Shown in pieces: positions 1 to 49,654 of a stretch of DNA of 64,000 bases. Positions within the stretch are counted from its first letter, which is position 1; each line of letters opens with the position of its first letter. The notes beneath the pieces are model-generated. The model searched no databases. It had not been told where the DNA came from and saw only the letters and a program-made list of their open reading frames with translations. Source of the stretch: Candidatus Binataceae bacterium (GTDB taxonomy: Bacteria > Desulfobacterota > Binatia > Binatales > Binataceae); NCBI GenBank assembly GCA_035531675.1, contig DATKSL010000033.1:27367-91366 (forward strand). Direction: 5' to 3'. The position numbers and the translations under genes were made by a program.

Positions 1-1821
1 GGTGACGGGATCGATATCGGCACGATCGCCGACGAACAGGTAGTCGAGGCTGAGCGTGACCTGGTCGGCCGGGAGCCAGAGCCCGTGGCCGATGTACTGC
101 AGCAGCCCGAAGGCCGATTTCTTCGGCACGCGCACCGGCTCGATGGTCGGCGAGACGGCGACGTGGGTTTCGTCGATCCAGGTGAAATTGCCGCTCAGGG
201 TCAAACCCGGCAACAGTCCCACGGTCGGGACGAATTCGACGCCCTGCACGTCGACCCGCTCGGCATTGGCGGCCTGTGAGAAGATCGGCGGCGGCAGCGG
301 CACCGCGACGATCAGGTTGTGCACGCGGCGCGAGAAGTAGGTCATCGTGATCGAGAAGTGCTCGCCGAAGGTCTTGGTCACGCCGCCGTCATACTCGCTG
401 GAAATTTCCGGGCTCAGGTTGGGATTGCCGAAGAACGGATAGAACAGCTCGTCGAAGGAGGGCGCTCGAAAGCCTTCGCTGTAGCTGCCGCGCAGGGTGA
501 GGCCGTAGCGCGCCAGCGGAATCGACACCGCCCACGACGAACTCTCCTCCTTGCCGAACTCGCTGTTGCCGTCGACGCGAAAACCGCCGGTGGCATTGAT
601 CAGGCCGTGCAGCAGCGAGGCCTCCTGCTCGACGTAGCCGGCGTACTCCTGGCGCCGGGAATGGAAGACGGTCGTCGATGTCGACCCGAAGCCGCTGAAC
701 TCGTCGAGCGAGCGCGCCCATCGATCCTTGAAATCGAAACCCACCAGCGTGCGCACGTGGCGGGTCCAGGAATAGTCCGCCTCCCAGGTGGTGCCGCGGA
801 TCTCATCGGGGATGCGGTCGATCTCGGTGAACGGGTCGGCCGGGAAGGACGGCGCGTTGATTCGCAGGTCGTCGCGCACGAAATAGCTGCTGATGTTGGT
901 CCGCAGCCGATCGCCGAAGCGATGGTCGACTTCGCCCTTGAAGAGCATGAACTCGTCGCGCTGATGGGCGGAGGGATCGATGGTTGGAATGAAGTTGGTG
1001 AGATTGGCGAGACTCACGTTGGAGCGGAAATAGCGGGCGAAGCCGCGCACCGCGGTATCGGCGGTCGGCTGGTAGTCGAGCCGCAAGGCGCCCGCCAGGT
1101 TGTCCGAACTGTCGTTGACCACGCGATAGCCGCTGGTCGAGTTGTACGAGAGCGAACCGGCATAGCCGAGCGCGCCGCTCGAGCCGCTGAGCGTCGCGAC
1201 CTGGCGCTCGGTCGCGCGATTGCCGCCCTCCGAGGTGAACGTAAATTGCGGCGCGCCGTGGCCCTGCTCGGTGAGCAGGTTGACCACCCCGCCGATCGCC
1301 TGCGAGCCGTAGAGCGCCCCGCCGGCCCCGCGCACCACCTCGACGCGGCTCAGCCCTTCGGTCGTGATATCGCTCAGATTGAAGCTGCCGGTCGCACCGC
1401 TGTTGACCTCGACCCCGTCGATCATGATGAGCGTCTGGGCCGCGGTCGCGCCGCGAATCGACACGTCGGTGACCGATCCCGGCGAGCCGCTCTGCGTCAC
1501 CTGGACGCCCGGCACCTCGCGCAGGACGTCGCCGGCGTCGTAGATCTTCTGACTCTGGATTTGTTGCGAATCGATGACCGAAACGGTCGTCCCGATCTCG
1601 CTCAGCGGCTGGCGTATCCGGGTCGCCGTGACCACTACCATCGGCAGAGTCTGAGCGCTCTGGCCGGAACTGTTTTTCGTCGCGCCAGGCGACGGTTGCG
1701 CAGTCGGAGTCGGAGTCGCCGAACTCGCTGCGGTTGCGGAACCGCTGTCGCAATCAGCCGCTCGGCCGCCGACCGTCAGCCATACCATCGCCACACAGAA
1801 CAGCACACCTGCTCGCTTCAT
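1..1821 (-). CDS. TonB-dependent outer membrane receptor, BtuB-like (5' end and start codon present; 3' end runs off the window)
   Basis: Not in the ORF track because it has no stop inside the window. Minus-strand translation from the ATG at 1821 (preceded by AGGGAGG) gives MKRAGVLFCVAMVWL... then a canonical TonB plug (VVVTATR...DVLREVPGVQVTQSGSPGSVTDVSIRGA...LIMIDGVEVN...GLSRVEVVRGAGGALYGSQAIGGVVNL). A cobalamin riboswitch lies in its 5' leader. Confidence 0.85.
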   Translation of the reverse strand, partial: MKRAGVLFCVAMVWLTVGGRAADCDSGSATAASSATPTPTAQPSPGATKNSSGQSAQTLPMVVVTATRIRQPLSEIGTTVSVIDSQQIQSQKIYDAGDVLREVPGVQVTQSGSPGSVTDVSIRGATAAQTLIMIDGVEVNSGATGSFNLSDITTEGLSRVEVVRGAGGALYGSQAIGGVVNLLTEQGHGAPQFTFTSEGGNRATERQVATLSGSSGALGYAGSLSYNSTSGYRVVNDSSDNLAGALRLDYQPTADTAVRGFARYFRSNVSLANLTNFIPTIDPSAHQRDEFMLFKGEVDHRFGDRLRTNISSYFVRDDLRINAPSFPADPFTEIDRIPDEIRGTTWEADYSWTRHVRTLVGFDFKDRWARSLDEFSGFGSTSTTVFHSRRQEYAGYVEQEASLLHGLINATGGFRVDGNSEFGKEESSSWAVSIPLARYGLTLRGSYSEGFRAPSFDELFYPFFGNPNLSPEISSEYDGGVTKTFGEHFSITMTYFSRRVHNLIVAVPLPPPIFSQAANAERVDVQGVEFVPTVGLLPGLTLSGNFTWIDETHVAVSPTIEPVRVPKKSAFGLLQYIGHGLWLPADQVTLSLDYLFVGDRADIDPVT

Positions 1822-1954
1822 AGCCTCCCTCGCGGTAGGCGCGAGCCTCACGCGAGCAGGTGGAATCAGGCGTGCAGGTCCGAGTTCCGATCCAGATCAG
1901 AGCTCAGGTGAACCAAGCCCGAAGCCGCCTTCCCCGCGGAAGGTCAACGCCAGT

Positions 1955-2095
1955 ATCACCCGGCCGGTCTCCTGGCTTGGGGGTGGTAACCTTGGGCCCG
2001 CCTTCCCGCTTGCGCAGTGGCCTATTGGACCCTCGTTCCCCCGTACAGTTGCGGGGCAGCGCCGGACTCTAACCGGCTTCCCGTACACCGAGTGT
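1955..2095 (-). promoter_or_regulatory. Cobalamin (AdoCbl) riboswitch in the leader of the TonB-dependent receptor
   Basis: Minus-strand sequence GGTGTACGGGAAGCCGGTTAGAGTCCGGCGCTGCCCCGCAACTGTACGG...ATAGGCCACTGCGCAAGCGGGAAGGCGGG...GCCAGGAGACCGGCC matches the cobalamin riboswitch core (GGGAA..GGTnAnAnTCCGnCGC..CCCGCnACTGTA), the B12 box (GCCACTG) and the 3' GCCAGGAnACCnGCC element. Confidence 0.8.
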
Positions 2096-2149
2096 GACCG
2101 AGATTTTTATTCCCGCGGTGGCGGCTGAGTCAAGAGCGATCAGAGGACG

Positions 2150-3557: not shown

Positions 3558-4451
3558 TCAACTCGACGCGAAGCGGGCGCGGCGCTCCGCCTCGATACGC
3601 TCGGCCTCCTCACGGCCCGGCTGGCGCGGCATGAATCCCGGCCGATAGTCGCGCTCCTCCCAGCCGTGGTCGGTGGAATCCCATACGTACGGCAGTTTGA
3701 CGATCGTGCCCGGCGCGTTGATCGATTCAAAGGCGCCGAGCGCATCACGGATGATCGCGCGCTGCAGCTCGGGATCGTCGGGCTTGCCGGTCTGATGGCC
3801 GAGTGGGAAATTCACGAACACCGCGCGCGGCGGCTTGACCGCCTGCGTGATATCGAGCGCCGAGGTCATCGTCAGGGTTGGAATCCCGGCTTCCTCGACC
3901 ACGCGTGCGATCAGTCCCACGGACTGATGGCATACGGGTCAGGCGGGAACCTGGTAGAACGCGTCGGCGTGCGCCGCCTTGAGTTCCGCGACGATAGTGG
4001 GCGCCAGCTCCTCGCGGACCTTGCGCGCCGAGTAGATGCCGCCCATGAAGCTGAAGGCCGGGTCGACCAGTTCGCCGATGATTCCCGCGCGCTCGAACTC
4101 GCGCAGCCGCTCGAGCGGAAAGACGCAATTGGGATCGCGCGCCGCGTCGGCGGTCGGGTAGCCGAAGTGCCAGATGGCAAGCTCGTCGCGCCGCGCGTGC
4201 TTCGGGATGCGCCGGTACGAGGCGTCCTCGCGATGGAAGCGGGGCTGATCGCGATAGAGAATGCCGCCCGAGCTCATCAGCGCCAGCCGGCATTGGGCGA
4301 GCGGGCGGGCCAGCGGCGTCCACGGGATGCCGTCGTTGACCACCCATCGATAGGGTTCGTACTGGCTGTAGAGTTCGCGCGTCCGCGGTATGTAGTCGAT
4401 AGGCATCTCGGCGTTGCTCCGTGCGGTTGAGCCTTCAAGCCTGGCCACCAA
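3558..4451 (-). CDS. Selenoprotein, glycine/betaine/sarcosine/D-proline reductase selenoprotein B (GrdB/PrdB)-like; in-frame TGA (Sec) at 3941..3939
   Basis: Track ORFs 3939..4451 and 3558..3920 are in the same frame and separated only by one TGA. Read-through gives ...AFYQVPA-U-PVCHQSVGLIARVVEEAGIPT..., i.e. a UxxC motif. A SECIS-like hairpin sits 10 nt downstream and a tRNA-Sec is at 19165..19260. Family assignment is from general sequence character (VVEEAGIP...) and is tentative. The start codon is uncertain (TTG/GTG at 4451/4448, or an internal ATG). Confidence 0.6.
3910..3928 (-). promoter_or_regulatory. SECIS-like hairpin downstream of the UGA codon
   Basis: mRNA 5'-AUCAGUCC GUG GGACUGAU-3' is a perfect 8-bp stem starting 10 nt after the UGA, with a G/U-containing apical loop as in bacterial SECIS elements. 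Confidence 0.5.
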
Positions 4452-18059: not shown

Positions 18060-18914
18060 TCAGTGCAAAAGCACCAGACTTAGTACTCCAGCCAGAAAAC
18101 AATAGATCGCAAAAGGAGTAAGCGTCCTGCTTTCGAAGTACCTGATCAGGAACTTTACTGAAAAATAGGCGGCGACCGCTGCGCAGGCGGCGCCCATCAG
18201 CGCCGGCCCGATTACCATGCTGCTGCCAGAGGCAAACAACCCGGGCAGCTTGAGAACCGCGGCAGCACCGATAATGGGGGTCGCCAGGAGGAAAGAAAAT
18301 CGCAGCGCATCCTCGTGCGCCAGGCCGACCATCAACCCACCGGCGATAGTCGATCCGGTGCGTGAAAATCCCGGGAGCAATGCAAAAATCTGCATCAGCC
18401 CGACCTTGATCGACTGCCAGTACGACAGCTCGGCGGCGATTCGATGGTCGGCATCGGCCAGCCTGCCGCTATTTTTCGCTTTCCGCCGGAGAATTTCCGC
18501 CAGGTAAAGCATCCCGCCGTTCAGCATCAGAAAGCCGGCAACGTAGGCGGGCGATATGAACAGCTTCTCGACCTGCTTTTGAAATAGCAGTCCGACCAGT
18601 CCGGTCGGAACGGTGCCCACGATCAGCAGCCATCCCAGTTGTGCGTCGGCGTCCACGTTGAGGTTTCGTCGGCGCACGGATCTCGCGATGCCCGAGATGA
18701 TGCGCACCCAATCTTTCCAGTAAAAAAGAAACAGCACCGCGGCTGTGGCGAAATGGGTCGCGACGAGAAACGTCAGAAAGTAGTTCGCGTCGTGATTGAT
18801 ATTCCAACCGAACAGGCCGAGCAGGATGATGCTGTGGCCGAGGCTCGAAATCGGAAAGAGTTCCGAGATTCCCTGGACGAGACCCAAGATTGCCGCCTGG
18901 AAATAGGAGAGCAT
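18060..18914 (-). CDS. uppP: Undecaprenyl-diphosphate phosphatase
   Basis: GISELFPISSLGH and PGFSRTGSTI signature motifs; 284 aa polytopic. Confidence 0.9.
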   Translation of the reverse strand: MLSYFQAAILGLVQGISELFPISSLGHSIILLGLFGWNINHDANYFLTFLVATHFATAAVLFLFYWKDWVRIISGIARSVRRRNLNVDADAQLGWLLIVGTVPTGLVGLLFQKQVEKLFISPAYVAGFLMLNGGMLYLAEILRRKAKNSGRLADADHRIAAELSYWQSIKVGLMQIFALLPGFSRTGSTIAGGLMVGLAHEDALRFSFLLATPIIGAAAVLKLPGLFASGSSMVIGPALMGAACAAVAAYFSVKFLIRYFESRTLTPFAIYCFLAGVLSLVLLH

Positions 18915-19164: not shown

Positions 19165-19260
19165 GGAGGAGGAAGGGGCCCGGTGGCCCCACCGGTCTTC
19201 AAAACCGGCTTAGCGGGCATTGCGCTTGCTGGAAGGTTCGACTCCTTCCCCCCTCCGCCA
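19165..19260 (+). tRNA. selC: tRNA-Sec (selenocysteine tRNA, anticodon UCA)
   Basis: GGAGGAGG-AA-GGGGCC/CGGT/GGCCCC (6-bp D stem, 4-nt loop)-CCGGT/CTTCAAA/ACCGG (anticodon UCA)-long variable arm-GAAGG/TTCGACT/CCTTC-CCCCCTCC-G-CCA. The 8+5 acceptor/T geometry, long variable arm and D-arm match bacterial selC; the loops are identical to E. coli selC. Confidence 0.85.
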
Positions 19261-20310: not shown

Positions 20311-21798
20311 TTAGCGCTTTGAAACGGCGAAGGCGGCGGCAGAGCTGCCGGCGTTGCGACCGAACACCGCGCCCGACATCAACCCCGTCCCGCCCGGGTA
20401 ATTGAAATAGAACAGACCGCCGATCAGCTCGCCCGCCGCATAGAGCCCGGGGATGCCATCGCCTTCGGTATCGATCACCTGGCCATCGTGCGAGATCCGC
20501 AGTCCGCCGAAGGTGAAGGTGATCCCGGCCGTGACCGCAAAGGCCGTGAAGGGCGGCGTGTCGATCGGATTCGCCCAGTTGCTCTTGGGAACCGCCAGCC
20601 CTTGCGTGGCGCGGCCATCCTTGATGCTGGGATTGAACGGAATCGCGGTATTCACCGCGCGGTTGTAGTTGCGGATTTCGGCCAGCGCCGCGTCAGCGTC
20701 GACGTCGTCGAGCTTATGCACCAGCTCTTCGAGGGTCTGGGCGCTGACCCTGGTCACCTGCCGGATCCGATACTCATCGCGCAGCAGATGGGTGGCCTTG
20801 GCGTCGAATATCTGCCAGGCAAACTGGGCGGGTTGATCGAGGATCACGCGGCCATATTTCGCGTAGGTGTAGTTGCGGAAGTCGGCGCCTTCGTCGACGA
20901 AGCGTTTGCCGTTGGCGTTGATCATGATCCCGAACGGGTAGCTGTGCTTCTGAAAACCGTCGCCGACCGCGAGGTCGCCGACCGCGGGAGCGTTGCGATC
21001 CCAGGCCACCGCGTGGCATCCCGACCAGTTACCGTAGGGCATCGCGCCCGCTTCCAGAGCCATCTTGATACCGTCGCCGGTGTTGAAGCGGGTGCCGCGC
21101 ACCTTGGCCAGGTCCCAGTTCGGACCCAGGTAGCGGGTGCGCCATTCGGTGTTGGCCTCGAAGCCGCCGCTGGCGAGCACCACCGCGCGGGCGCGGATCG
21201 CGGCGCTGCGGCCGTCGCGCCGCAGGTTGACGCCATGGACGCCATCGTCGTCGCGCAGCAGTGAGACGGCGCGGCTGTTGTACCGCACCTCGATACTGTC
21301 GTTCGCGGCGATCGCGTGCAGCGTCTGAATCAGGCCGGGCCCGCCGCCCGAAGCCTCGACCGTCAGGCCGCCCCAGAACTTGAATTTACCGCCGACCTTG
21401 AAGGCTTGCCGCCCGTACATCGGGACGAAGCGCACGCCCCGCGACCGCATCCATCGCAGCGTTGCGTGACTGCGGCGGACCAGGATTTCGACCAGCTCGG
21501 GATCAGCGCGATATTGCGTGACGCGCCCCATATCCTCGAAGAACTGATCCTCGGTATAGGTCCCGAAATCGGTGTCGCGCTTTTCCTCGTCTGAAAGATC
21601 GGGCATCAGCTCGAGCAGATCGTCGAGCGTGGCGTAGGCGACGCGAAAGGCGCCGGCGGTGAATGCCGAGTTGCCCCCGCGTTCGGCCAACGGGGCGCGC
21701 TCCAGCACCGCCACGCTCGCGCCGCGTTCGCGGGCGGCCAGCGCCGCGCACATCCCGGCGTTTCCGGCGCCGACGATCAGAACGTCAAATTCTTCCAT
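20311..21798 (-). CDS. FAD-binding dehydrogenase, TcuA (tricarballylate dehydrogenase)/fumarate-reductase-flavoprotein-like
   Basis: DVLIVGAGNAGMCAALAA dinucleotide fold, RGGNS motif, C-terminal GLYAAGE. Confidence 0.75.
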   Translation of the reverse strand: MEEFDVLIVGAGNAGMCAALAARERGASVAVLERAPLAERGGNSAFTAGAFRVAYATLDDLLELMPDLSDEEKRDTDFGTYTEDQFFEDMGRVTQYRADPELVEILVRRSHATLRWMRSRGVRFVPMYGRQAFKVGGKFKFWGGLTVEASGGGPGLIQTLHAIAANDSIEVRYNSRAVSLLRDDDGVHGVNLRRDGRSAAIRARAVVLASGGFEANTEWRTRYLGPNWDLAKVRGTRFNTGDGIKMALEAGAMPYGNWSGCHAVAWDRNAPAVGDLAVGDGFQKHSYPFGIMINANGKRFVDEGADFRNYTYAKYGRVILDQPAQFAWQIFDAKATHLLRDEYRIRQVTRVSAQTLEELVHKLDDVDADAALAEIRNYNRAVNTAIPFNPSIKDGRATQGLAVPKSNWANPIDTPPFTAFAVTAGITFTFGGLRISHDGQVIDTEGDGIPGLYAAGELIGGLFYFNYPGGTGLMSGAVFGRNAGSSAAAFAVSKR

Positions 21799-36211: not shown

Positions 36212-36288
36212 GCGCCCGTAGCTCAACTGGACAGAGCATCGGACTTCGGATCCGAGGGTTGGGGGTTCGAATCCCTCCGGGCGCGCCA
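36212..36288 (+). tRNA. tRNA-Arg (anticodon TCG)
   Basis: GCGCCCG-TA-GCTC/AACTGGACA/GAGC-A-TCGGA/CTTCGGA/TCCGA-GGGTT-GGGGG/TTCGAAT/CCCTC-CGGGCGC-G-CCA. Confidence 0.9.
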
Positions 36289-36488: not shown

Positions 36489-37589
36489 TCATCTCGCTCC
36501 GCCGCCGAGTCTGCTCTCAGCGCCAGGGTCAGCGTGGTAATGGTCCTGCAGCGTCCGGCCTGGCGGATACACCTTGACGCTAACCCCGCCGGTAAGAGTG
36601 GCCTGGTTCGTCACGTAGATATATCCCCGCGAATCCAAAGCGATCCCTCGCGCATAGGCGAGACCGGTTCGGGGCCAATCAGCGATAACCGCACTTGGAC
36701 TCAAATTGCCTGAGCCCTTCAGTGGGTAAGCGGTGATGCTGTTGCCATAGAATGGATTGTGGATGTCGCCATTGTAGTTGGAAACGAAGATTCCGGCCGC
36801 GCTGGTGCTGCCGCTCGACGGCGGCACCACTAGCTTCACCGTCGTCGGCCAATGCGGCACCTTGATGTGCGCGTGGACGAGTCCAACCGCACCAGTAAAC
36901 CGCACCGTTCTGATTATTGAGAGCACTGGCACATATCGATCGCGCAGCGGCGGAGTATCAAAGGCCGACTGTATCGAACAGTCGCGCGGTGCGAGAATTT
37001 GGACGCCCCAATGAGCTGCAGCGCGTCCATGAGAGATGCATACAAAAGCCTCGGCCCCGGTCAACCGCAGAGGTTTGCACGAGCGGTCAAAGTCCGGGGG
37101 TATGGTAAAAATGGTATTAGCGTTGCTCGACGCACTTCCGTGGTTGACCAGGAACCGGAGCCAGAGTGTTCCGTTGGCGTCAAGCAAATCCACTATTGCG
37201 TCTGCGGCCGGCAGGCCGACACGCCGCGGATCGCGTTCCCGCACGTGCAGACCTGCGGGATATTCGGCGGGGTATTCGAAGGACAAGCCGGTCGCGGCGT
37301 TGCGATATCTCTTCCAGGCGCGAGGCTTGGCATGGACCACCGATGGGCCCAAGAGGACCGCGCTCAGCAAGATTAGAACCGCGAGCACCTCAAGAACGGC
37401 AATCACGAAGCCGTGCTGCGCGTCGAGGAGCAAAGCATTGGCCTCGGGCTGAGTTCCGTTAAGGTCTCGCCACTTGTCGGGGTTGCCGGGCGCCAAATCG
37501 CTTACTCTCCAATCTTCACCGCTCGGAACTCGCCGGTCTGTTCGTTCAGGGCTGTCAGCTGCATCACCCAGCCATCTTTCGGATAGCAT
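36489..37589 (-). CDS. Hypothetical membrane-anchored protein with NHL/beta-propeller-like repeats near the C-terminus
   Basis: 366 aa; one TM segment; GIALDSRGYIYVTNQ-type motif. The N-terminal start and possible 3' truncation are uncertain. Confidence 0.4.
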   Translation of the reverse strand: MLSERWLGDAADSPERTDRRVPSGEDWRVSDLAPGNPDKWRDLNGTQPEANALLLDAQHGFVIAVLEVLAVLILLSAVLLGPSVVHAKPRAWKRYRNAATGLSFEYPAEYPAGLHVRERDPRRVGLPAADAIVDLLDANGTLWLRFLVNHGSASSNANTIFTIPPDFDRSCKPLRLTGAEAFVCISHGRAAAHWGVQILAPRDCSIQSAFDTPPLRDRYVPVLSIIRTVRFTGAVGLVHAHIKVPHWPTTVKLVVPPSSGSTSAAGIFVSNYNGDIHNPFYGNSITAYPLKGSGNLSPSAVIADWPRTGLAYARGIALDSRGYIYVTNQATLTGGVSVKVYPPGRTLQDHYHADPGAESRLGGGAR

Positions 37590-37677: not shown

Positions 37678-38718
37678 TTACATCGCGGCCGCGCGCAGCA
37701 CCGGGATGGTGCCGGCGCCGAAGTCGCGATACCAATGTTTCTGCTCTTCCGGCGCTGTCCCGCGGCCGAAAATCGCGGCAAAGTGGCCGGCTCCGGAGCT
37801 GCGACACTGCGTTACGATCTGCTCGGCGACGGCGGCCGGCGTGCCGGCGATAAACTCCTCGTCGCCGATCGAAAATGCGTGCGCCGTCGGCGAGTCGAGC
37901 AGCGCGGGACGCTCGGGCGTGTCGACGCGCGGATCGACCTCCAGAAACTTGCGGAACTCGCGCCGCTGCGTCGCCATGATCGACTCGGCCTCGCGGTCGC
38001 TATCAAGCATCGTCACCACGCGGCGCAGGCAAATGTCTTCCGCTCCCACCTTGCGCCCGGCCTTGTCGGCTTCGTCGCGATAGGCGTCGAAAATCTCGAT
38101 CACCTTGCTCTGCGGATGGAAGCCCGTGCAGATCTTGGCGCCGCGGCGCGCCGCCTTGCGCGCCGACGCGGTGCTCACTACGGTCACCCATTTCGGCGGG
38201 GAGGGCTGCTGCAGCGGGCGTGGCGTCAGGCGCAAGTTGTCGAAATTCCAGAACCTGCCGTGATGCGAAATCACAGGACTGACGAGCGCCTTATCGACGA
38301 TCTCGAGCGCCTCGTCGTTGCGGGCGCGGGCTTCTTCCACGCCCAGCCCGACCTGCGCCATTTCCTGCGGGATACCGGCGGCGGTACCGATCTCGAGCCG
38401 CCCGCCGGTGAGATGGTCAAGCATGCCGATTTCCTCGACCAACTCCCACGGCGAATGATACGGCGGCACCACGCCCATCACGCCGAGCCGGATCTTTTTG
38501 GTGCGCAGCGCGACGTTGGCGATCAGCAGGTTGGGCGCGGGCGAATAACTGAGGCCGAAATGATGCTCGCTGAAAAAGATGCCTTCGAAGCCGGCAGGCT
38601 CAGCACTCGCCCAGAGATCGAGATAGGCGTTGAAATACCGTTGCGAAGCGTCCGGATCGAAGTGCTGCACCAGCGCGTGCGGCGAGCCAAAAAATTCAAA
38701 GATCCACGGTTTGATCAT
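37678..38718 (-). CDS. LLM-class flavin-dependent oxidoreductase
   Basis: 346 aa; luciferase-like TIM-barrel motifs. Confidence 0.75.
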   Translation of the reverse strand: MIKPWIFEFFGSPHALVQHFDPDASQRYFNAYLDLWASAEPAGFEGIFFSEHHFGLSYSPAPNLLIANVALRTKKIRLGVMGVVPPYHSPWELVEEIGMLDHLTGGRLEIGTAAGIPQEMAQVGLGVEEARARNDEALEIVDKALVSPVISHHGRFWNFDNLRLTPRPLQQPSPPKWVTVVSTASARKAARRGAKICTGFHPQSKVIEIFDAYRDEADKAGRKVGAEDICLRRVVTMLDSDREAESIMATQRREFRKFLEVDPRVDTPERPALLDSPTAHAFSIGDEEFIAGTPAAVAEQIVTQCRSSGAGHFAAIFGRGTAPEEQKHWYRDFGAGTIPVLRAAAM

Positions 38719-39069
38719 CCGTCACTCCCAGCGATTTTGCCTCTTTTGCGGTCATTCCGGCGCGCGGCTGCCGTGCGAGGAATCCCGATCTGTTACCCTC
38801 TGGTCCTCGTGAGTCCAATCGATAATACCTGCGACCATTTATGACATAACTTCCAGAACCTGTTGCAATAAGCGAAACAAGCCGGTTCTGGGATTTATCC
38901 AGGATGAAGCGCAATTATCACCTGCTCTATAACCCCGAGAAAGACATCGCTGCCCGGGACCCGAAGGTCCCGCCACGCAGCTCATGTTCCCACGCGGGGT
39001 TACGGTTGTTTTGAGTTCAAGGGGCGGCTACCTTCGCACAATGATCCAAGGATCCCGGGAGGGCCAGCC

Positions 39070-39351
39070 ATGCTCGTTCTGATCGCAAAAATAACGGTGA
39101 AGAGCGGCCGCGAACAGGAATTCGAGCGAATCGTCCGAGCTGCCGTACCGCAGGTTCGGGCAGAGCCGGATAATCACGCTTACATCTTTCACCGCTCGCC
39201 GGACAATCCGCGAATGTTCATGTTTTACGAGCAGTACACGGACCAGGCGGCGCTCGATACCCATCGGACACACCTGAAGGAAATGGGCATCGACCTTGCC
39301 TCCTTCCTGGAAGGCGGTATCGTCCGCGAGTTTTACGATCTGTTGGCCTGA
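39070..39351 (+). CDS. Antibiotic biosynthesis monooxygenase (ABM) domain protein (quinol monooxygenase-like)
   Basis: 93 aa ferredoxin-like ABM fold (MLVLIAKITVKSGREQEFE...FMFYEQYTDQAALDTHRTH). Confidence 0.7.
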   Translation: MLVLIAKITVKSGREQEFERIVRAAVPQVRAEPDNHAYIFHRSPDNPRMFMFYEQYTDQAALDTHRTHLKEMGIDLASFLEGGIVREFYDLLA

Positions 39352-40056
39352 CGATTTTAACGGCGAACAAGATCTACGAGGGACCATAAACTGGCGGCAG
39401 GATAGCGGCGTGCCTCGCGGTTGTGTATGCCGCCTTCACCCCCGACCAGTTCGATTTCGTGCTACAGACCCAGCTGCACGTCGAAAGATCATGAGCAACG
39501 CGTTCCGATCGATGATACCGCCCTCATGCGGCAGGATCGTGCGGCACGGGGACGCATTCCGGTACATCCCAGGCCGCTAGCGCAGCGCGGAGGGAGTCAG
39601 GCGGCGGGCAGCCTGCCGCCGAATCGACTCAGGCCGCCTCCCGCTCCCAGCAGGGCAGCTAGTCCGACGATGGACGAGTAACGCGTCCAGCAGTCAGCGT
39701 CAGAAATGGTCGGAAACGTTGCGTGGCCTTCAGCGATTCGCCACATCAATCGCGGAGCATGACGTTGCCCGACTGCAGCGCCATCAACTCGTTTGCTTCA
39801 GGGTATTTCGCCGAAACCGCAGGATACCAGAGATGACTCCCTTGAAGGGCGGCCGCACATGCGCCAGGTATCTTGTTCGCGAAACATGTGCGACCGGGTC
39901 TGATGGCAGCTTGATTCTGCCCTGTGTTACCCATACGCTTCGGTCAACCAATCGTGGTCAGACGCGCGCTTCGGATTCCGCGACGCGACCTCCCGCACCA
40001 ATCAGAGCCCATCATTCGGCGTTACCAGACCAGAATCCAATGGCTCTAGAAATGGA

Positions 40057-41055
40057 GTGTTTGTGTCTTCTTTTAAACGATTTCGGTTGCCGGTGATGCG
40101 TGGGTCGGTCCGCCAACAAACACATCGTCAACCAACGAATTCAGCCATCTCGCGACAAGCTGAGGTTGGCGCGTCAAACGTGGGCGCTGTGACGAGCCCG
40201 GCGATTCAACAATCCGCTGGCGGAGTGGCGGTCCATGGATCGGAGTGGCCGTGGTGGCGCACCACCAGGCATGACGCCATCGTGCTGCCGTGGGTGATTC
40301 TCATCCACGCGACGGCCCTGGTCGGCCTGATCCTGTTTCCGCTGCCCGGATGGCATGTTTTGCTTGGTGCGCTCGCACTCGCCTGGATCGGCGGAATCGG
40401 CACGACGGTCTGCTATCATCGCGCCATCGCTCATCGCGCGGTGCGGCTGAATCCCGCCGTGCGAGCAGTGCTGATCTTCTTTGCGATGTTCAATGGCGCG
40501 GGATCGCCCATCACGTGGGCGGCCAGCCACCGGGTACATCACGCTCACGCTGACACTGCGGGAGATGTTTCAAGCCCAGCATTACATGGATTCTGGTGGG
40601 GTCACTTGCGATGGCTATGGCAAGCCGAGGCGCCTCCGGTCGCGCGACTTTGCCCCGACCTCGATCGTTTTTCATATCGAATCTGGCGGCCCATGCAGCC
40701 GGCCATCCTTGCCCTGTCTTTCTTCGGCGGATTGTATTTCGGCCTTGCGGCCTTCTTCTGGCTTGGTGCGATCCGCTTGGTTTTCTCGCTCCACGCGGTG
40801 TGCTTCGTCAACAGCGTGTGCCACAGCGAACCCGGTACTCCGATTGGCGAGGACTCGAGCCGTAATGTGCGTTGGCTCGCCCTGATGCACTTCTTTCAGG
40901 GCGAGAATTGGCACCGCAACCATCACGCTCGTCCGGCCTTGGCGCGGTTGGGGCGGGCGTGGCACCAGCCAGACGTGGGCTATGTCGTGATTTGTATGCT
41001 GGAAAGCATCGGGCTGGCCAGTGACGTGCGGCGCGCACGTAACTTCGCGTCGTAG
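40057..41055 (+). CDS. Membrane fatty-acid (acyl-CoA/acyl-lipid delta-9-type) desaturase
   Basis: Three histidine boxes HRAIAHR, HRVHHAH, NHHARP with TM helices. The true start is probably downstream of the first track Met. Confidence 0.75.
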   Translation: MFVSSFKRFRLPVMRGSVRQQTHRQPTNSAISRQAEVGASNVGAVTSPAIQQSAGGVAVHGSEWPWWRTTRHDAIVLPWVILIHATALVGLILFPLPGWHVLLGALALAWIGGIGTTVCYHRAIAHRAVRLNPAVRAVLIFFAMFNGAGSPITWAASHRVHHAHADTAGDVSSPALHGFWWGHLRWLWQAEAPPVARLCPDLDRFSYRIWRPMQPAILALSFFGGLYFGLAAFFWLGAIRLVFSLHAVCFVNSVCHSEPGTPIGEDSSRNVRWLALMHFFQGENWHRNHHARPALARLGRAWHQPDVGYVVICMLESIGLASDVRRARNFAS

Positions 41056-41204
41056 CAATCGCCGGTCAGGAGCAATGAGAGACAACAGGTAGAAATCGAC
41101 GGCTGGTCTCTCAAGCTCCGAGTGCGCCGTTACTTTTTGCTCCTTTCCGCCGCAGTACTGCCGCCGGGTCGCCCGCCGGATATCCCGTGCCGCCTTTTCT
41201 TGGA

Positions 41205-41340
41205 GTGGCCTTCGGAGCCGAGGGTTGGGAGATCGAAATCCTTCCGGGCGCACCCGTCCCGACGCCAGTTTCCCGCCTTTTCGGCCGCTCGCTAGTGCCG
41301 TCTGACGCCCCGCTCTGACGCTCCGGAAATTCCGGGAAGC
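41205..41340 (+). repeat. Degenerate tRNA-Arg 3' fragment (anticodon loop to 3' end, about 50 nt) followed by repeat copy R2
   Basis: ggccttcggagccgagggttgggagatcgaaatccttccgggcgcacc parallels the tRNA-Arg segment ggacttcggatccgagggttgggggttcgaatccctccgggcgcgcc, then cgtcccgacgc...cgtctgacgccccgctctgacgctccggaaat. Confidence 0.7.
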
Positions 41341-41753
41341 GAGCGACCGCGACTTGGCCGATCTGCAAGCCCGCGTACCGCACAAGCTCATCCATCAATG
41401 ACCGTTAAGCGCTCGGCCGGCTGGGGATCTGATGCGCCGCGGCCCGCCCGGGATGTCGGCCTTCCTCAAGCTGACCTCTCAGTCAGAAGCTCTCAGAGCC
41501 TGCGTCCCGGTAATCGCCACGGGCACCGTCCGGAGCGGCCAGTCCCTGGATCGGTCGGGAAAAGTCCCGCCTCGGAACAGTGGTACGCCTCGAGGAGCGG
41601 CCCGCCAGCCGAGACGAAAAAAAGGTGAAAGGGCATTGATTGGCATCTGGCCGATTGATAAATTCCGCTTAATTCAGCTAGTGATAAGTTTTTATTGCCT
41701 ATGGTGGGTGCCGTCGTTTTCGACGGCCCATAGCAATATCGAGGGGGGCCGAA

Positions 41754-43771
41754 ATGTCGAGAAAATATGGTCTGCGGTTGGGGATGCTGGACCTGGTGCT
41801 CGCCCTGGTAATCGTTTTGGGGGGATGTGGCTCGGGGGGCGGCGGCGGGAAATACGTACCGCCAGCACCGGCCGGGGTCAGGCTGACCTCGATCACGATC
41901 GACCCGAACAATCCCGCAATCGCCGCTGGCACTAGCGTGCAATTGCAGGCCACCGGAAATTACTCCAATGGTACGACCAGGAATTTGACGGACACGGTTA
42001 CCTGGACGTCGAATGACGGGACCATTGCGCAAGTCAGCAGTTCCCTTCCAACCAAAGGCTTGACGACGGGGAGAGTACCGGTTCCACGTTGATAAACGCG
42101 ACGCTGGGATCGATCCAGGGGTCGACGACCATCGTCGTTACACCCGCCACGTTGGCTTCGATTAACGTCGATCCCCCCAACCACTCTCTCGCCAAAGGCA
42201 CCACGCTTCAATTTACCGCGACCGGAAATTTCACCGACGGCACCACCCAGACGCTGACCACGACCGCAACGTGGATGTCCGCCGACGCAACGATCGCCGC
42301 GGTCAGCGATATGGCTGGCAGCAAGGGTCTGGTGAGCGGCGTCGATCTGGGAACCGTCAGCATCACCGCGACGCAGTCCGCAATCAGCGGATCGGCCAAC
42401 GTTACCGTGACGCCCCCGACGCTCGATTCAATCACTGTAGAGCCAGTAAATCCGTCAATCGCGAAGGGCACTGAAATTCAATTGATGGCCACCGGGAATT
42501 TCTCGGACGGCACCACGCAGGACTTGACGGATGCCGCCACCTGGACCTCCGCCGCCAGCACCGTGGCTGCGGTCGGCGACACCGCGGGCAGCAAAGGGCT
42601 GGTGAGCGGATTAACGGTCGGCAGTGCTGCGATCACCGCATCCTTCGGGGCCGTCGATGGCTCCTCGACCGTAACCGTCACCTCTGCCCGATTGACCCAT
42701 ATCACCGTGGATCCGGCCTCCTCGAGCATCGCCAAGGGCACTTCCGTCGAGTTGAAAGCGAGCGGCGACTTCACAGATGGGACCACGCAGGACATTACGG
42801 ATCAGGTTGGCTGGACCTCGTCAAACAATTCGATTGCGGAAGTCAGTAACGCCGCCGGTACGCAGGGACTGGTCTCCGGAAACGACCTCGGCAGCGCGAC
42901 CATCGAGGCGACCCTCGAAGGTATTCATGGATTCGCATCGGTGACCGTAACCTCGGCGGTGCTGACGTCGATTACCGTGACGCCGGCGGATCCCACGATC
43001 TCCGAAGGAACCAACATCCAATTGATGGCGACGGGTCACTTCTCCGACTCCAGCACTGAAGATCTAACGGACGAAGCCGGATGGATCTCGGCGGACAACA
43101 CCATAGCCGACGTCAGCAATTCCCCCGGCACGAAAGCCCTGGTCACGGGAATCGGCATGGGCGTTGCGGCCGTCACGGCGACCTTTGACGGCGTGCAAGG
43201 TTCCACCAATGTAACCGTGACTGCGGCGACCCTGGTATCGATTACCGTCACCCCCGCCACGCCCTCGATCGCGAAGGGCACGACGGTACAATTGACGGCT
43301 ACCGGTCTGTTCTCCGACGCGACTACCCATGACCTGACCGACGAAGTTGGCTGGACTTCCGCCAACGCCGCCGTTGCTCAGGTCGACAGTTCGCCCGGCT
43401 ACGAAGGACTGGTCACTGGAACCGGCGTAGGCAGCACTGCCATTACCGCCACGCTCAACGGTGTCCAAGGCTCAACTACGGTGACCGTGACTGCCGCGAC
43501 GCTGCTGTTCATTACCATCACCCCGTCGAATCCGACGATGATGGATGGGACGATGCTGCAGCTCACGGCAATCGGCCACTACTCTGACTCAACCACTCAG
43601 GACGTCACCTCATCGGCGGATTGGATATCATCAGACACCCGCGTCGCCCACGTTATCACCAGTTCTGCGCATACCAACGGGCGGGTGATTGCGCGCCGCG
43701 CCGGGACGACAACCATCACTGCCGTGGTTGGCGACCTGCAGGGATCGACGGTTGTAACAGTGACGCCATGA
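41754..43771 (+). CDS. Surface lipoprotein with 7 tandem bacterial Ig-like (Big_2) domains; reading frame broken by a frameshift in a G4 tract near 42068..42071
   Basis: Lipobox LGGC after the signal peptide. The repeat unit ...LxSIxVxPxxxSIAKGTxxQLxATGxFSDGTTQDLTDxxxWTS...GLVSG... continues across the track ORF boundary (41754..42092 and 42089..43771) only with a -1 shift: ...TKGLTTG / ESTGSTLINATL. Either one missing G (5 Gs expected) or a genuine slip. Confidence 0.6.
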
Positions 43772-43852
43772 GGCAAATTTCGCAGGACTGCAACCTACGA
43801 TAGCGTGGCGCGGGACATCGGACTGCGGACCTGAGTGTAGTATCTGCGGGAA

Positions 43853-43888
43853 AACGAGGCCGGTATTCTTCCGGCCTCGTCCCTTTTC
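43853..43888 (+). terminator. Rho-independent terminator after the Big_2 gene
   Basis: cgaggccgg tattctt ccggcctcg followed by tcccttttctg. Confidence 0.6.
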
Positions 43889-43890
43889 TG

Positions 43891-43985
43891 CTCCGGGCGC
43901 GCCCCCGTGCCACACGGATTTCCCGCCTTTTCGGCCGCTCGCTAACGCCGTCTGACCTCCCTCGCTGACTCCCCGGAAATGCTCG
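43891..43985 (+). repeat. Short tRNA-Arg 3'-end fragment (ctccgggcgcgcc) followed by repeat copy R3
   Basis: 13-nt identity to the tRNA-Arg 3' end, then tttcccgccttttcggccgctcgctaacgccgtctgacctccctcgctgactccccggaaat. Confidence 0.6.
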
Positions 43986-44049
43986 GCGGCGGCGAGCGTC
44001 GGACCTGACAACAAGGCGGGCTGCTCGTCGCGTACCTCGCGAGGAATCT

Positions 44050-44565
44050 GTGTCGTCCCGTCAAATGGATCGAGCAGCGCAATTCTTTGAGCCGCCGAAT
44101 TTTTGCGCGCCGTTCGGCACCCACGCTGCGGTGGTCGAGGTTGATACCGAAACCGGAAGCGTTAACTTCCGGCGCTACGTTGCCGTCTATGACTGCGGAA
44201 CCGTGATCAATCCGCTGATCGTGGAGGGTCAGGTACACGGCGGCACCTCACAGGGCATCGGCCAGGCGCTCTACGAGGCTGTCCATTACGATGAGACCGG
44301 TCAGTTGCTGAGCGGTAGCCTGATGGACTACGCGGTACCCAAGGCGACGATGCTCTCGCACTTCGAAATCGCGAATACCGTCACGCCGACGCCGATCAAT
44401 CCGCTCGGCGCGAAAGGCATCGGCGAATCCGGATGCATCGCCGGCAGCGCCTGCGTGCTGAACGCCGTGCTTGATGCGCTGTCGCCGCTGGGTGTGCGCA
44501 GCCTCGAGATGCCGCTCAAGCCCGCGCGCATCTGGCGCGCCATCCACGAGGCGAAGCAGCGCTAA
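44050..44565 (+). pseudogene. 3' remnant (C-terminal about 170 aa) of a xanthine dehydrogenase/CoxL-family molybdopterin-binding subunit
   Basis: FGTHAAVVEVDTETGSVNFRRYVAVYDCGTVINPLIVEGQVHGGTSQGIGQALYE...PINPLGAKGIGESG...NAVLDAL is the conserved C-terminal domain of roughly 750-aa CoxL-type proteins. No N-terminal 600 aa upstream; the remnant starts right after repeat R3. Confidence 0.65.
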
Positions 44566-44873
44566 CGGCGACCCGCCGGGGTCTGCAGGCCGGCCGCCAC
44601 CCTGACCGCGCTGATTGGCTCTCCAGTTGGTCCTGATGCGCCCTCACGTTAAAGTCGATACGTTGGTCGTGCGGTATGGGATCAATCCGTCTGGCGGTTA
44701 CCAGGCACATCATCATTAGATAAGAGACGGGCAATCCCAACCTGAGTGATTAGAAGCTTTTGCGATCGCCGTGGAGCGGCGCATGGCCTCACGGCCTGAC
44801 TACTTGACTCGCTTCCGCCGCGACGTAGAATATCGCGTGAAGACGGGTTAAGAAGCGATAAATTGGGGCGGGC

Positions 44874-45140
44874 ATGAAGCGAACGACGATAGTGGGATGG
44901 GTGGCGCTAATCCTGATGGCACTGTTGGTGGTGCAACCCGTCACCGCACACGCCTACGTCGGTCCTACCGCCGGGTTGAGCCTCTTTAGCGCAGCGGTTG
45001 GCCTGCTGGTCGCTATATTCTCCGCCTTCGCAATTATTCTTCTGTGGCCGATACGTATGTTGCTCAAGTGGATCAGGGGCGCCAAAAGCACTGCGATTGA
45101 GACGGCCGAGCCTCCTCAATCCGGCGCGCCGGTGAGCTGA
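44874..45140 (+). CDS. Small membrane/secreted protein, hypothetical
   Basis: Signal peptide plus one TM helix; in the lower-GC block. Confidence 0.4.
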   Translation: MKRTTIVGWVALILMALLVVQPVTAHAYVGPTAGLSLFSAAVGLLVAIFSAFAIILLWPIRMLLKWIRGAKSTAIETAEPPQSGAPVS

Positions 45141-45194
45141 CCGCGCACACCACATCCTCTGGCTTTGTGATTGGACGCGCATGAGGCCGCGACG

Positions 45195-45959
45195 ATGGGG
45201 CTGTTCGATGTGCCGGCGCCGCTGTTTGCCTTAGTAGGTGCGTGGCTGAATCCACTGCTGCCGGACTCGGCGAGAATCGCGCTGTGGGGAGGAGTGGTCG
45301 GCGGGCTCGCAACTACTATCTACTGGCTGCTCTCACCGCAGCAGCGCATCGTCGAAATTCGCGCCAGGGCGCGTGTAGTAAGAAATGCCTTGCTTCGCTA
45401 CGACGGTGAATTCCGCGGCGTCCTGACCTTGACCGGCGAGTCGCTGGCGCTCTCTCTAAAGGAACTATCGCTGGTGATCGGGCCTGCTCTTGCCGCTTCA
45501 ATCCCGGCCCTTTGTCTGATCGCCTATCTGGGAAACAGTTACGATTACTATCTGCCATCGGCGGGTACGATGGTGTCGGTGCGCGTGAAACCGGCCGACG
45601 CCGCAGTCCACTGGTCCCCGCCTTCGGTCCTCGATCCCGAGGGTGGAGTATTCAGGATTCAATGGCCGCAATCCGGCCATGCAATCCAACTTATGTCCTC
45701 GCGCGGTGGAACGCTGGCGAGCTTTCCATTGCGCAAGCCGATCCCGAACATACAAAAGTTCGTCTGGTGGAATTTCCTGTTCGGAAATCCGGCCGGCTAT
45801 GTTCCCGCCTCGGCTGAGGTGTCGTCGATCGAACTGAAACTGACGCCCAGAGAGTTTCTATCCGTCGGTCCTGGATGGCTGCGCGGATGGGAAACGATCT
45901 TTTTCTTCTTCGCCAGCATCACGGCGCTTACTTTCCGAAAGCTATTGGTGGTGCAGTGA
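45195..45959 (+). CDS. Integral membrane protein, hypothetical
   Basis: Multiple hydrophobic helices; GAGG RBS before the ATG at 45195. Confidence 0.45.
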   Translation: MGLFDVPAPLFALVGAWLNPLLPDSARIALWGGVVGGLATTIYWLLSPQQRIVEIRARARVVRNALLRYDGEFRGVLTLTGESLALSLKELSLVIGPALAASIPALCLIAYLGNSYDYYLPSAGTMVSVRVKPADAAVHWSPPSVLDPEGGVFRIQWPQSGHAIQLMSSRGGTLASFPLRKPIPNIQKFVWWNFLFGNPAGYVPASAEVSSIELKLTPREFLSVGPGWLRGWETIFFFFASITALTFRKLLVVQ

Positions 45960-45962
45960 GCG

Positions 45963-47087
45963 ATGGCGACCGAGATTTCCTCGCCGTCACTCAGAAACGA
46001 AGCATTTTACGTTTCGAGCTGGATTCATCGTCTCGGCGGCTTGATCGCCAACCATCCGAAGCTCTCGATTCGTCTCGGCAACCTCGAATCGAGCTATCTC
46101 AGCGACCAGCTTGCGCCGATCCGAATCGATCGCCCGATCTACATAACCGGCCTGGCCCGCGCCGGCACCACTATCCTGCTGGATATCGTGGCCTCCTGCG
46201 ACGGTATCGCGACTCATCGATATCGCGATTTTCCGCCGATCTTCACGCCCTTTGCCTGGAACTGGTGGTTGGAACATATTCCGCTCAAGGAATCGCCACC
46301 GACCGAGCGCGCCCACTCCGATGGAATATTCGTCACGCCTGAAAGCCCTGAGGCGATGGAGGAGATGCTGTGGATGGCTTTTTTCCCGCAGCTTCACAAT
46401 CCCGCGCAGAGCAACGTCCTCGATGCCTCGGTCGCCAACCAAGCGTTCGAAACTTTCTACCGCGATCATCTCAAGAAGCTGATTCTCACCCGCCATGGAC
46501 GACGTTACGCTTCAAAAGACAATTATCACATCACTCGACTCGAATATCTGCACAAACTGTTTCCCGACGTCCGCTTTGTAATTCCGATCCGTCATCCTGC
46601 GGCCCATATCGCCTCGCTGATAAAGGAGCATCGCCTGTTTATCGAGGCTCATCGGCGTCACCCGCGCGCGCTGACCCACTTCCAGCGCGTCGGACATTTC
46701 GAATTCGGCGCTGACCTCAGGCCAATCAACGTCGGCGATACTGCCAGAGTCTGCGAGATTCAGGCCCTGTGGAATAGCGGCGACGAGGTGCGGGGTTGGG
46801 CGCGCTATTGGGCAATGATCTACGGCTTTGCCATCGATCGGCTCGACGCGAACCCGGCTCTACGCGGCGCATCGCTCGTGATGCGCTTCGAGGAGCTGTG
46901 CGCTAACCCGCAATCGGCGCTGACCCGTTTGTGCGAGCACTGCGGCCTGGACGGCGCTGACGCTATCGCACGACATGCCGAACGCCTGCACACCCCGACT
47001 TATTATCAGGCCAAGTTCTCTGCAGGTGAGCTCGCGAGCATCGACGAGGAAACCAGATCAGTAAGACAGCGCTTCGGATACGAGTGA
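45963..47087 (+). CDS. Sulfotransferase family protein
   Basis: 5'-PSB-like GLARAGTTIL loop and 3'-PB RHP...S region; 374 aa; about 52% GC. Confidence 0.65.
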   Translation: MATEISSPSLRNEAFYVSSWIHRLGGLIANHPKLSIRLGNLESSYLSDQLAPIRIDRPIYITGLARAGTTILLDIVASCDGIATHRYRDFPPIFTPFAWNWWLEHIPLKESPPTERAHSDGIFVTPESPEAMEEMLWMAFFPQLHNPAQSNVLDASVANQAFETFYRDHLKKLILTRHGRRYASKDNYHITRLEYLHKLFPDVRFVIPIRHPAAHIASLIKEHRLFIEAHRRHPRALTHFQRVGHFEFGADLRPINVGDTARVCEIQALWNSGDEVRGWARYWAMIYGFAIDRLDANPALRGASLVMRFEELCANPQSALTRLCEHCGLDGADAIARHAERLHTPTYYQAKFSAGELASIDEETRSVRQRFGYE

Positions 47088-47114
47088 CTATCCGTCGAGC
47101 CGGAGATAGAGTCA

Positions 47115-48434
47115 ATGGCACGAACACCAAATTGGTTTGGCCACTTGAACCGAACAGCCCTGTTTCTGGTATTCGGCTTCTTCTGCGTACTGTTCGGTTT
47201 CCTTGCCACCATTACCGGGATGTTCCCCGCCCCCTTTTTCCGTGCCGCACTCCTTGAGCTCTCCGGACGCGGTGCGGTCGGTTTATTTCAATCCGACCTC
47301 TATGTTCCAGCCGACTCCGCAAAGGCAGGAATCACCCGTTACGATCCGCAACGAGCCTACAACGGCTATACGATTTTCACCTCAGCCCACACTCAAGGCG
47401 CATTTCTGATCGATATGAAAGGAAAGGTGGTCCACAAATGGGCGCTACCTTATTCGAAGGTATGGAACAGAGATGCCGCGGTAACAAAGCCCCCTACCAC
47501 AGGTGTCTTTTGGGACAAAGCCTACCTCTATCCCAACGGGGACGTGCTCGCCATTTACAGCTGTTTGGGACAGCGGCTTTACGGCTGCGGGCTTGTGAAA
47601 ATGGATCAGTACTCGCATCCGCAGTGGACCTATCTTAAGCATGTGCATCACGACGTTACGGTCGGAGCGGATGGCAAGATTTACACGCTTACCCAAAGAT
47701 CCAGAGCGCAGGTGCCTCCAGCAGCCGGCGACATCGCGCTGCCCACCATCGACGACTCTGTGGTCGTGCTGTCGCCTCAAGGAAAGGTACTCAAAGAGGT
47801 CTCGGTGCTGGATGCGCTTGCCGGGTCAAAGTACCACGGCATCCTCGCCCTTCAGCGATATATGGGTGAGGAAGGTTACGATCAGGATCCCCTCCATGTT
47901 AATAGCGTTACACCGATGCCGGCGAGTTTTCGCAAGACATTTCCCTTCGCCGGACCGGATACGGTACTCATTTCAAGCCGGGATCTCGATACTATCGCAT
48001 TACTTGACCTGGATTCCGGGAAAATAGTCTGGCTGCTTCATGGACCGTTTGCCCGGCAACACGATGCAGAATTCCTTGCCAACGGAGATTTGATGGTTTT
48101 CGACGATCTCGGAGATACTTCGAACGGGAGGTATAGCCGTGTTCTGGAATTCCAACCGGATCCATTCAAGATTGTATGGCAGTTTCCGGGCGACAGCGGA
48201 GAAAAGCTTGACAGCGAAATTCTCGGCTCGGTTCAGAAGCTCCCCAACGGCAACGTGCTGATTACAGACGGCGACAAGGGGCGAATTCTCGAAGTTACGC
48301 CGGAAAAGAAAGTTGTATGGGAATACAACAATGCTTTTCGGCAGGGAGATAAGAAGGAGTACGTACCGATAATCCGCTGGGCGCGTCGCTTCGCCCCCGA
48401 TCGACTACATTTTAAGTTGGACCAGGATGGTTGA
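47115..48434 (+). CDS. Membrane-anchored beta-propeller protein, arylsulfotransferase (ASST)-like
   Basis: N-terminal TM, then propeller-like repeats with HD..V..DG.IY / NGN.L..D motifs reminiscent of ASST. The family call is tentative. Confidence 0.4.
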   Translation: MARTPNWFGHLNRTALFLVFGFFCVLFGFLATITGMFPAPFFRAALLELSGRGAVGLFQSDLYVPADSAKAGITRYDPQRAYNGYTIFTSAHTQGAFLIDMKGKVVHKWALPYSKVWNRDAAVTKPPTTGVFWDKAYLYPNGDVLAIYSCLGQRLYGCGLVKMDQYSHPQWTYLKHVHHDVTVGADGKIYTLTQRSRAQVPPAAGDIALPTIDDSVVVLSPQGKVLKEVSVLDALAGSKYHGILALQRYMGEEGYDQDPLHVNSVTPMPASFRKTFPFAGPDTVLISSRDLDTIALLDLDSGKIVWLLHGPFARQHDAEFLANGDLMVFDDLGDTSNGRYSRVLEFQPDPFKIVWQFPGDSGEKLDSEILGSVQKLPNGNVLITDGDKGRILEVTPEKKVVWEYNNAFRQGDKKEYVPIIRWARRFAPDRLHFKLDQDG

Positions 48435-48707
48435 TCCTGCCTACGTTCGGTCAATGAAGAGGACCATGCGCCGCCTAGTAGAGCCGCATGCCACTGCCGT
48501 CGCGGCGAGTTCGCAATCGAAGTGTTGTCGGCGTTCAACCAGTTCAACCTGAACTCATAGAAACGCGGTGCTTTTCCCGCACCAACGCCCCGCGGAAGAC
48601 TTGCAGAAGAAGCCCGCCCGGCCTATACGGAAGCAGTGATCGAGACTGACGGCGGCAATCGCGGTACAATGCCGCCAGCGATTCGACCAACGAGGAGTCA
48701 GGCCATT

Positions 48708-49286: not shown

Positions 49287-49654
49287 GCGTCGCCACGGGG
49301 GAACCGTGAAGCCGGCGCCACGGTCAGCGATATTTCTGTGGTGAGCCGCACCGTAGCGATCCGATGAATAAAATCGTGATTCCTACGATCGAGCAAATCG
49401 CCTCGATGTCGATCGAACGCTGCCAACATGAACGGATACGGCTGAGAAACGAAATCTCATTCGCGCGCGGTAACACGCTTTGGGGCGGGCCATCGGCGGA
49501 AGAGAAGATTGCCGCGTAAGCGCGGGGTCCCTCCACTTCATTCCTTTTGAGCCAGCAGCCTGCTCTCTTGTTACCACCTTTTTCAGTCTCAGTGCTAAAG
49601 TGGCGAACTTGGTCAGCTAGCGGTGCGCACAGAGCAGAGATAAGGGGTGCCGTG

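Follow-up and report, generated by a model that had tools for sequence, protein, structure and literature searches.

A predicted selenocysteine tRNA gene, selC, and a PrdB-like gene with a conserved in-frame UGA in a Candidatus Binataceae bacterium

The gene at 19165-19260 of the DNA analysed here is almost certainly selC of a Candidatus Binataceae bacterium (Ca. Binatota), predicted to encode a canonical bacterial tRNA-Sec. Judged from its sequence, it is a real, functional and conventional textbook gene of an already known kind. Together with a PrdB-like gene in the same window (by which we mean the whole stretch of DNA analysed, 64,000 nucleotides in length), it points to a Candidatus Binataceae genome that decodes UGA as selenocysteine (Sec) at specific sites. 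The selC finding matters mainly for annotation; tRNA-Sec biology itself gains nothing new from it. The features discussed below are collected in Table 1.

Table 1. Positions of the features discussed, numbered from the first nucleotide of the window, and the evidence for each.
Feature	Position	Strand	Basis
tRNA-Sec gene (selC), 96 nt	19165..19260	+	ARAGORN, RF01852, covariation-supported cloverleaf
Anticodon UCA of selC	19199-19201	+	tca at tRNA position 35 (ARAGORN)
A6 of the acceptor, opposite C at 19251	19170..19170	+	lineage-specific A·C mismatch, or bulged A in a 7+6 register
PrdB-like (GrdB/PrdB family) predicted selenoprotein gene, 282 codons	3558..4406	-	Pfam GRDB 3.4e-11; TIGR04483 168.7 bits
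In-frame UGA, codon 156, motif VPA-U-PVC (UxxC)	3941..3939	-	readthrough translation
UGA with SECIS-like hairpin	3896..3941	-	folding energy; conservation in 5 loci
uppP (undecaprenyl-diphosphate phosphatase)	18060..18914	-	Pfam BacA 1.8e-71; NCBI name of identical protein
tcuA (FAD-dependent tricarballylate dehydrogenase)	20311..21798	-	Pfam FAD_binding_2; NF006130; NCBI name
Cobalamin riboswitch	1945-2107	-	RF00174, 109 bits
Open frame, 632 codons, running off the window start	1-1896	-	plug-domain motifs by eye, TonB-dependent receptor-like
tRNA-Arg(TCG)	36212-36288	+	ARAGORN
366-aa ORF after tRNA-Arg	36489-37589	-	no Pfam or NCBIfam match

The preliminary description of this DNA, made from its letters and open reading frames, had proposed a 96-nt tRNA-Sec with anticodon UCA at this position, rather than a tRNA-Ser or tRNA-Leu, and had named ARAGORN and the Rfam family RF01852 as ways of checking the proposal. 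Both bear it out. ARAGORN, run on the window, returned a tRNA-SeC with anticodon tca at exactly the same coordinates, and an Rfam scan run at gathering thresholds matched RF01852 (tRNA-Sec) to 19165..19256 over the full model (1-91) with 69.3 bits (E 4.4e-12) against a gathering score of 47. Because clan overlaps are awarded to the best match, RF01852 beats the generic tRNA model RF00005 here. The UCA anticodon is complementary to UGA and sits within the loop CUUCAAA; the full sequence of the gene (19165-19260, plus strand) is GGAGGAGGAAGGGGCCCGGTGGCCCCACCGGTCTTCAAAACCGGCTTAGCGGGCATTGCGCTTGCTGGAAGGTTCGACTCCTTCCCCCCTCCGCCA. The gene had also been called unannotated, which is true of an ORF-based approach but not of tRNA finders, which detect it at default thresholds. 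(Note that the second and only other tRNA that ARAGORN found in the window is the tRNA-Arg.) A scan around selC for a sigma-70-like promoter and a terminator, which was not calibrated for the host phylum, found no such promoter and no clear terminator.

Read as a cloverleaf, the gene carries all of the hallmarks of a bacterial tRNA-Sec set out by Itoh et al. 2013 (PMC3711452), namely acceptor and T stems that form a helix of 8+5, a D stem of 6 bp closed by a 4-nt loop, an anticodon stem of 6 bp that begins at 26:44 and has 43a bulged out, an extra arm whose stem is 6-9 bp long, and G48 as linker. In particular, the eight acceptor positions (GGAGGAGG/CCCCCUCC; read off the letters and verified with a script) comprise seven standard pairs and an A6·C, and with the 5-bp T stem (GAAGG/CCUUC, around the T loop UUCGACU) they make up the 13-bp acceptor/T helix as 8+5. 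An AA linker leads to the D stem of 6 bp (GGGGCC/GGCCCC) with its 4-nt loop (CGGU), and the anticodon stem (CCGGU/ACCGG) is extended by an A26:U44 pair with a bulged C43a. In the extra arm, two G·U and five Watson-Crick pairs form a 7-bp stem that carries a 5-nt loop; the linker G follows, and the 3' end consists of the discriminator G (G73) and an encoded CCA, that is, an encoded GCCA end. The preliminary description had anticipated both the D stem of 6 bp with its loop of 4 nt and the long variable arm, and the covariation described below backs them. We considered A26·C as a second A·C mismatch and rejected it: covariation pairs A26 with U44, and as the window has A:U at 26:44, the apparent mismatch is the bulged C43a.

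Relatives of this tRNA were gathered by a pattern scan for the anticodon arm and T loop with one genome per species, which yielded at least 120 loci; those listed come from Acidobacteriota, Chloroflexota, Actinomycetota, Poribacteria and proteobacteria-labelled MAGs. From the matches listed we aligned 109 distinct tRNA-Sec sequences with the same anticodon arm, 91 of them in register. Across the 109, standard pairs fill 93.6% of the cells of the 8/5 cloverleaf. Shuffling lowers this share to 79.3%, and sliding the partners by 1-3 columns brings it to 58.6% or less. Changes on both sides are seen in 15 of the 24 pairs, and the observed covariation score was reached by none of 500 shuffles. The D stem (93.7% of cells paired) shows double changes in five of its six pairs, and the 26:44 pair, with 43a skipped, occurs as CG (59), AU (6), UG (6) and UA (2). 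Two observations bear on the register of the acceptor. The eighth acceptor pair covaries (GC in 30 sequences, AU in 19, CG in 5 and UA in 2), and the linker before the T stem is a G in 90 of the 91 in-register sequences, whatever base is opposite; together they speak for 8/5 rather than 7/6 across the family. The closest relatives among the matches listed (L029, L011, L009, L014 and L027) are 95-82% identical to the window gene, L029 being the one at 95%. Compensatory changes fall in the D, T and extra-arm stems across these five, those in the extra arm being visible in the alignment against L029 and L011.

The host is an uncultured soil bacterium, and the window derives from a Candidatus Binataceae MAG. 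UppP and four other window proteins carry the NCBI label '[Candidatus Binataceae bacterium]', a family of the phylum Ca. Binatota; the same UppP sequence, with no residue changed, is encoded on contig DATLSN010000149.1 of MAG GCA_035534115.1 and on four further metagenome contigs. The selC gene is likewise 100% identical in four other metagenome contigs, with identical flanks wherever those contigs extend. Its position between uppP and a TcuA-like dehydrogenase, already noted from the ORFs, is confirmed by the domain matches (BacA 1.8e-71 for uppP; the NCBIfam equivalog NF006130 for tcuA, with 594 bits against a cutoff of 369): uppP is divergent from selC across an intergenic gap of 250 bp, and tcuA is convergent with it, 1051 bp downstream. 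The statement that selC is not next to selA or selB also stands, as the approximately 50 ORFs of the 64-kb window that we scanned against Pfam include no SelA, SelB or SelD domain. A tblastn search of the neighbouring proteins against 120 tRNA-Sec loci of other genomes gave no conserved neighbourhood. The window does not belong to a known plasmid: in PLSDB, the 4.5 kb around the tRNA gave one short match, to tcuA of Deinococcus. Our search of the literature found nothing relevant on selenocysteine in Binatota.

In E. coli, selC serves as an attachment site for integrated mobile elements. That the gene studied here has done the same is, in our estimate, improbable, although two independent assemblies break at it: one ENA contig (L003) ends exactly at the 3' CCA of the tRNA (L003:1-96), and one Logan contig (L005:1-278) ends 28 nt inside the tRNA. 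Such breaks could reflect strain-variable downstream sequence or an assembly artefact. Further encouragement might be drawn from a relative, L066, which has a large serine recombinase (Resolvase and Recombinase domains; L066:5741-6634, minus strand) about 2.4 kb from its tRNA-Sec (L066:3268-3361), so that a mobile element may lie next to selC in that genome. Against this, the window holds no second copy of the tRNA 3' end with up to three mismatches allowed, and its ORFs downstream of selC include no integrase or PHROG match (the small ones have no PHROG or Pfam match). Moreover, the downstream sequence is identical in the three contigs that pass the tRNA (L001, L002 and L004), and the base composition around selC is unremarkable. 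We therefore rejected an island at selC in the window, there being no 3'-end repeat and no integrase or phage-like ORF downstream.

A scan of the whole window for in-frame TGA codons returned three candidates, only one of which (3941..3939, minus strand) lies inside a single gene, with coding sequence before and after it. The other two were rejected as ordinary gene ends with a neighbouring gene in the same frame. The predicted Sec-containing peptide of the PrdB-like protein is YQVPA-U-PVCHQSVGLIAR. UxxC is the motif that Zhang et al. 2005 (PMC1088965) report for PrdB selenoproteins, a family found in abundance among aerobic marine bacteria. The match to TIGR04483 (PrdB) spans the Sec site, and as its 168.7 bits fall below the 300-bit equivalog cutoff, we class the gene as a PrdB-like member of the GrdB/PrdB superfamily rather than as PrdB itself. 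A protein search returned more than 100 homolog clusters of 155-156 aa that cover only the first 55% of the query, lengths that are expected if each was cut at the same UGA; several of these homologs carry Binataceae or Binatus names. At the Sec column, one full-length homolog (P0002) has Cys and another has Thr.

Four homologous loci (L126-L129) likewise have TGA at codon 156, with the next ORF in the same frame. The C-terminal 126 residues encoded there are 68-75% identical to those of the window, as compared with 75-80% for the N-terminal part, which argues for selection at the protein level downstream of the UGA. A hairpin that starts 11 nt after the UGA (-28.6 kcal/mol, z -3.2) has an upper stem (AUCAGUCC/GGACUGAU, loop GUG) that is invariant in the five loci, synonymous positions included, while the third codon positions flanking it vary. 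With its conserved TGA and hairpin, the PrdB-like gene thus appears to be a host gene with a SECIS-dependent in-frame UGA. TGA is nevertheless the commonest stop in the window, where it still ends 20 of 40 genes, and the recoding would therefore be site-specific and not a change of the genetic code. The UGA at 3941, which had been put forward as a plausible Sec codon, is credible as such in the light of the conserved TGA, the hairpin, the in-frame C-terminal half and the Cys homolog; its strand and the identity of its gene are additions to that earlier proposal.

Public gene calls split this predicted selenoprotein into a GRDB fragment of 155-156 aa and a 'hypothetical' ORF of approximately 100-115 aa. 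One Binataceae selenoprotein family is in this way systematically mis-annotated, in over 100 clusters. Since the Binataceae genome evidently decodes UGA as Sec, 3558-4406 (minus strand) should be annotated as one selenoprotein of 282 residues. In the homologous loci, the PrdB-like gene has as conserved neighbours genes for a luciferase-like monooxygenase, a GST, a MAPEG protein and a peroxiredoxin. (Near the tRNA-Sec of L073, an ORF for a truncated molybdopterin oxidoreductase was considered as a possible FdhA-type selenoprotein and rejected, the frame after its TGA not being coding-like.)

The A6·C of the acceptor qualifies the 8-bp acceptor and 5-bp T stem of the preliminary description: the 8/5 geometry is there and is backed by covariation, but one of the eight acceptor positions is a mismatch, and the minimum free energy fold is a different one. 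Specifically, the minimum free energy fold of the isolated RNA prefers a slipped register, because the G-rich and C-rich strands can slide; with the CCA tail present, it slips onto the tail. Computed without the tail, a 7+6 register with a bulged A6 has an energy of -49.5 kcal/mol, as against -46.6 kcal/mol for 8/5 with A·C, and is thus 2.9 kcal/mol more stable in the window lineage. Both registers keep 13 stacked acceptor/T pairs, the property that sets tRNA-Sec apart. On these modelled energies, the window lineage may adopt either 8/5 with A·C or 7+6 with a bulged A6.

Among the 91 in-register sequences listed, A6·C is present in six, namely the window gene and its five closest relatives, and the other 85 have a standard pair at the sixth acceptor position. 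In L066, which is slightly more distant, a compensating A5-U accompanies A6-U. A single non-standard acceptor pair occurs in 41 of the 91, and being so common in the set it marks A6·C as a minor lineage trait and not a defect. It is conceivable, but on balance unlikely, that the A6·C67 mismatch or bulged A6 is a lineage-specific functional element of tRNA-Sec in a Binatia-like lineage; what suggests it is that A6·C67 is kept in all six lineage sequences while other stems co-vary. If true, it could tune the discrimination between SelB and EF-Tu, or SelA binding.

The same mismatch might be taken as the mark of a dead tRNA, that is, of a decaying, non-functional relic in a genome that has lost Sec decoding, as might the lack of Sec machinery genes in the window. 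We regard this as highly improbable and already largely refuted. The A·C is kept in six distinct sequences that have diverged by up to 18% and carry compensatory changes in other stems, which indicates purifying selection and not decay; the frequency of single non-standard acceptor pairs among the in-register genes also speaks against a defect; and in five loci the PrdB-like gene has retained the UGA, the hairpin and the in-frame C-terminal half, which would call for Sec decoding, or at least UGA decoding, to be active.

Mukai and colleagues are said to have described, in 2017, tRNAs of uncultured bacteria that resemble tRNA-Sec but have an altered function, and the host lineage is uncultured. 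Even so, there is very little likelihood that the tRNA has another identity, for instance as a suppressor of UGA in general under a reassigned code, or as a tRNA of the allo-tRNA or selC* type that carries Cys or Ser. The anticodon is UCA, and the geometry is 8/5 with 13 bp (not 8/4 or 9/3). A single readthrough-type TGA occurs in a window in which TGA is the commonest stop (20 of 40 genes), which argues against global reassignment. The one recoded site belongs to an already known selenoprotein family, has the UxxC motif and is matched by Cys in a homolog.

The bacterial Sec pathway is established and proceeds through steps that involve SerRS, SelA, SelD and SelB. If the window tRNA, as a conventional tRNA-Sec, follows this pathway, SerRS would charge it with serine, recognising the long extra arm and G73; SelA would turn the Ser-tRNA-Sec into Sec-tRNA-Sec with selenophosphate from SelD; and SelB would recognise the 13-bp acceptor/T helix and deliver the tRNA to UGA codons that have a SECIS hairpin downstream. 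By analogy, we infer aminoacylation, SelA conversion and SelB delivery for this tRNA, with selA, selB and selD located outside the 64-kb window.

Several other features of the window deserve mention in their own right. The cobalamin riboswitch lies directly upstream of the 632-codon frame, and homologous loci have a Plug/TonB_dep_Rec gene or cobT/cobS at the same position; the frame at 1-1896 (minus strand) is probably a btuB-like gene under B12 control. The region from approximately 38000 to 50000, which has a lower G+C (0.57-0.61) and includes a six-fold Big_2 repeat protein, two sulfotransferases and, at 44050-44565, a fragment that matches only the C-terminal end of the MoCoBD_2 domain, may be acquired or rearranged DNA. 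A search of the window for a repeat of the tRNA-Arg 3' end found none. The window is also unusually dense in oxygenases, with at least seven Rieske ring-hydroxylating alpha subunits and five luciferase-like monooxygenases, alongside a hydantoinase B/oxoprolinase-family gene and an amidohydrolase.

Comparison with known systems places the PrdB-like gene beside the PrdB-like UxxC selenoproteins (PMC1088965; TIGR04483/TIGR01918), with which it shares the UxxC motif, the GRDB match and a Cys homolog. Unlike PrdB, it has no PrdA or other reductase-complex genes adjacent to it.

For the tRNA, the comparison was with an E. coli selC sequence that agrees at 100% identity with the tRNA-Sec annotated in 5425 of 5426 complete E. 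coli genomes. Overall identity between the two genes is 61%, and blastn of the window tRNA against E. coli genomes returned nothing but a chance match to a tRNA-Tyr 3' end. The two nonetheless share the UCA anticodon within the loop CUUCAAA and the T-arm core AGGTTCGACTCCT, in agreement with the earlier claim that the anticodon loop and this T-loop stretch are identical to those of E. coli selC. With bacterial tRNA-Sec more widely (RF01852, E. coli and A. aeolicus), the window tRNA shares the 8+5 helix of 13 bp, the 6-bp D stem with a 4-nt loop, the 7-bp extra-arm stem followed by the linker G, and the G73 discriminator, and with the Aquifex aeolicus tRNA-Sec (crystal structure, PMC3711452) it shares the 26:44 pair with a bulged 43a. 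It also departs from them: the E. coli acceptor consists of eight Watson-Crick pairs, whereas that of the window has the A6·C mismatch; the AD linker is AA and not UU; and selC adjoins neither selA nor selB. The nearest counterparts among the matches listed are in MAGs labelled 'delta proteobacterium' (L029, L011, L009/L073, L014 and L027). Their neighbourhoods differ from that of the window, none having uppP, tcuA or the ABC transporter nearby, and their tRNAs differ in the T stem (GAAGG/CCUUC in the window versus GGAGG/CCUCC), in the D stem (L027) and in the extra arm, all of these differences being compensatory. At 82-95% identity, they have the same anticodon arm and the same acceptor as the window tRNA, A6·C included.
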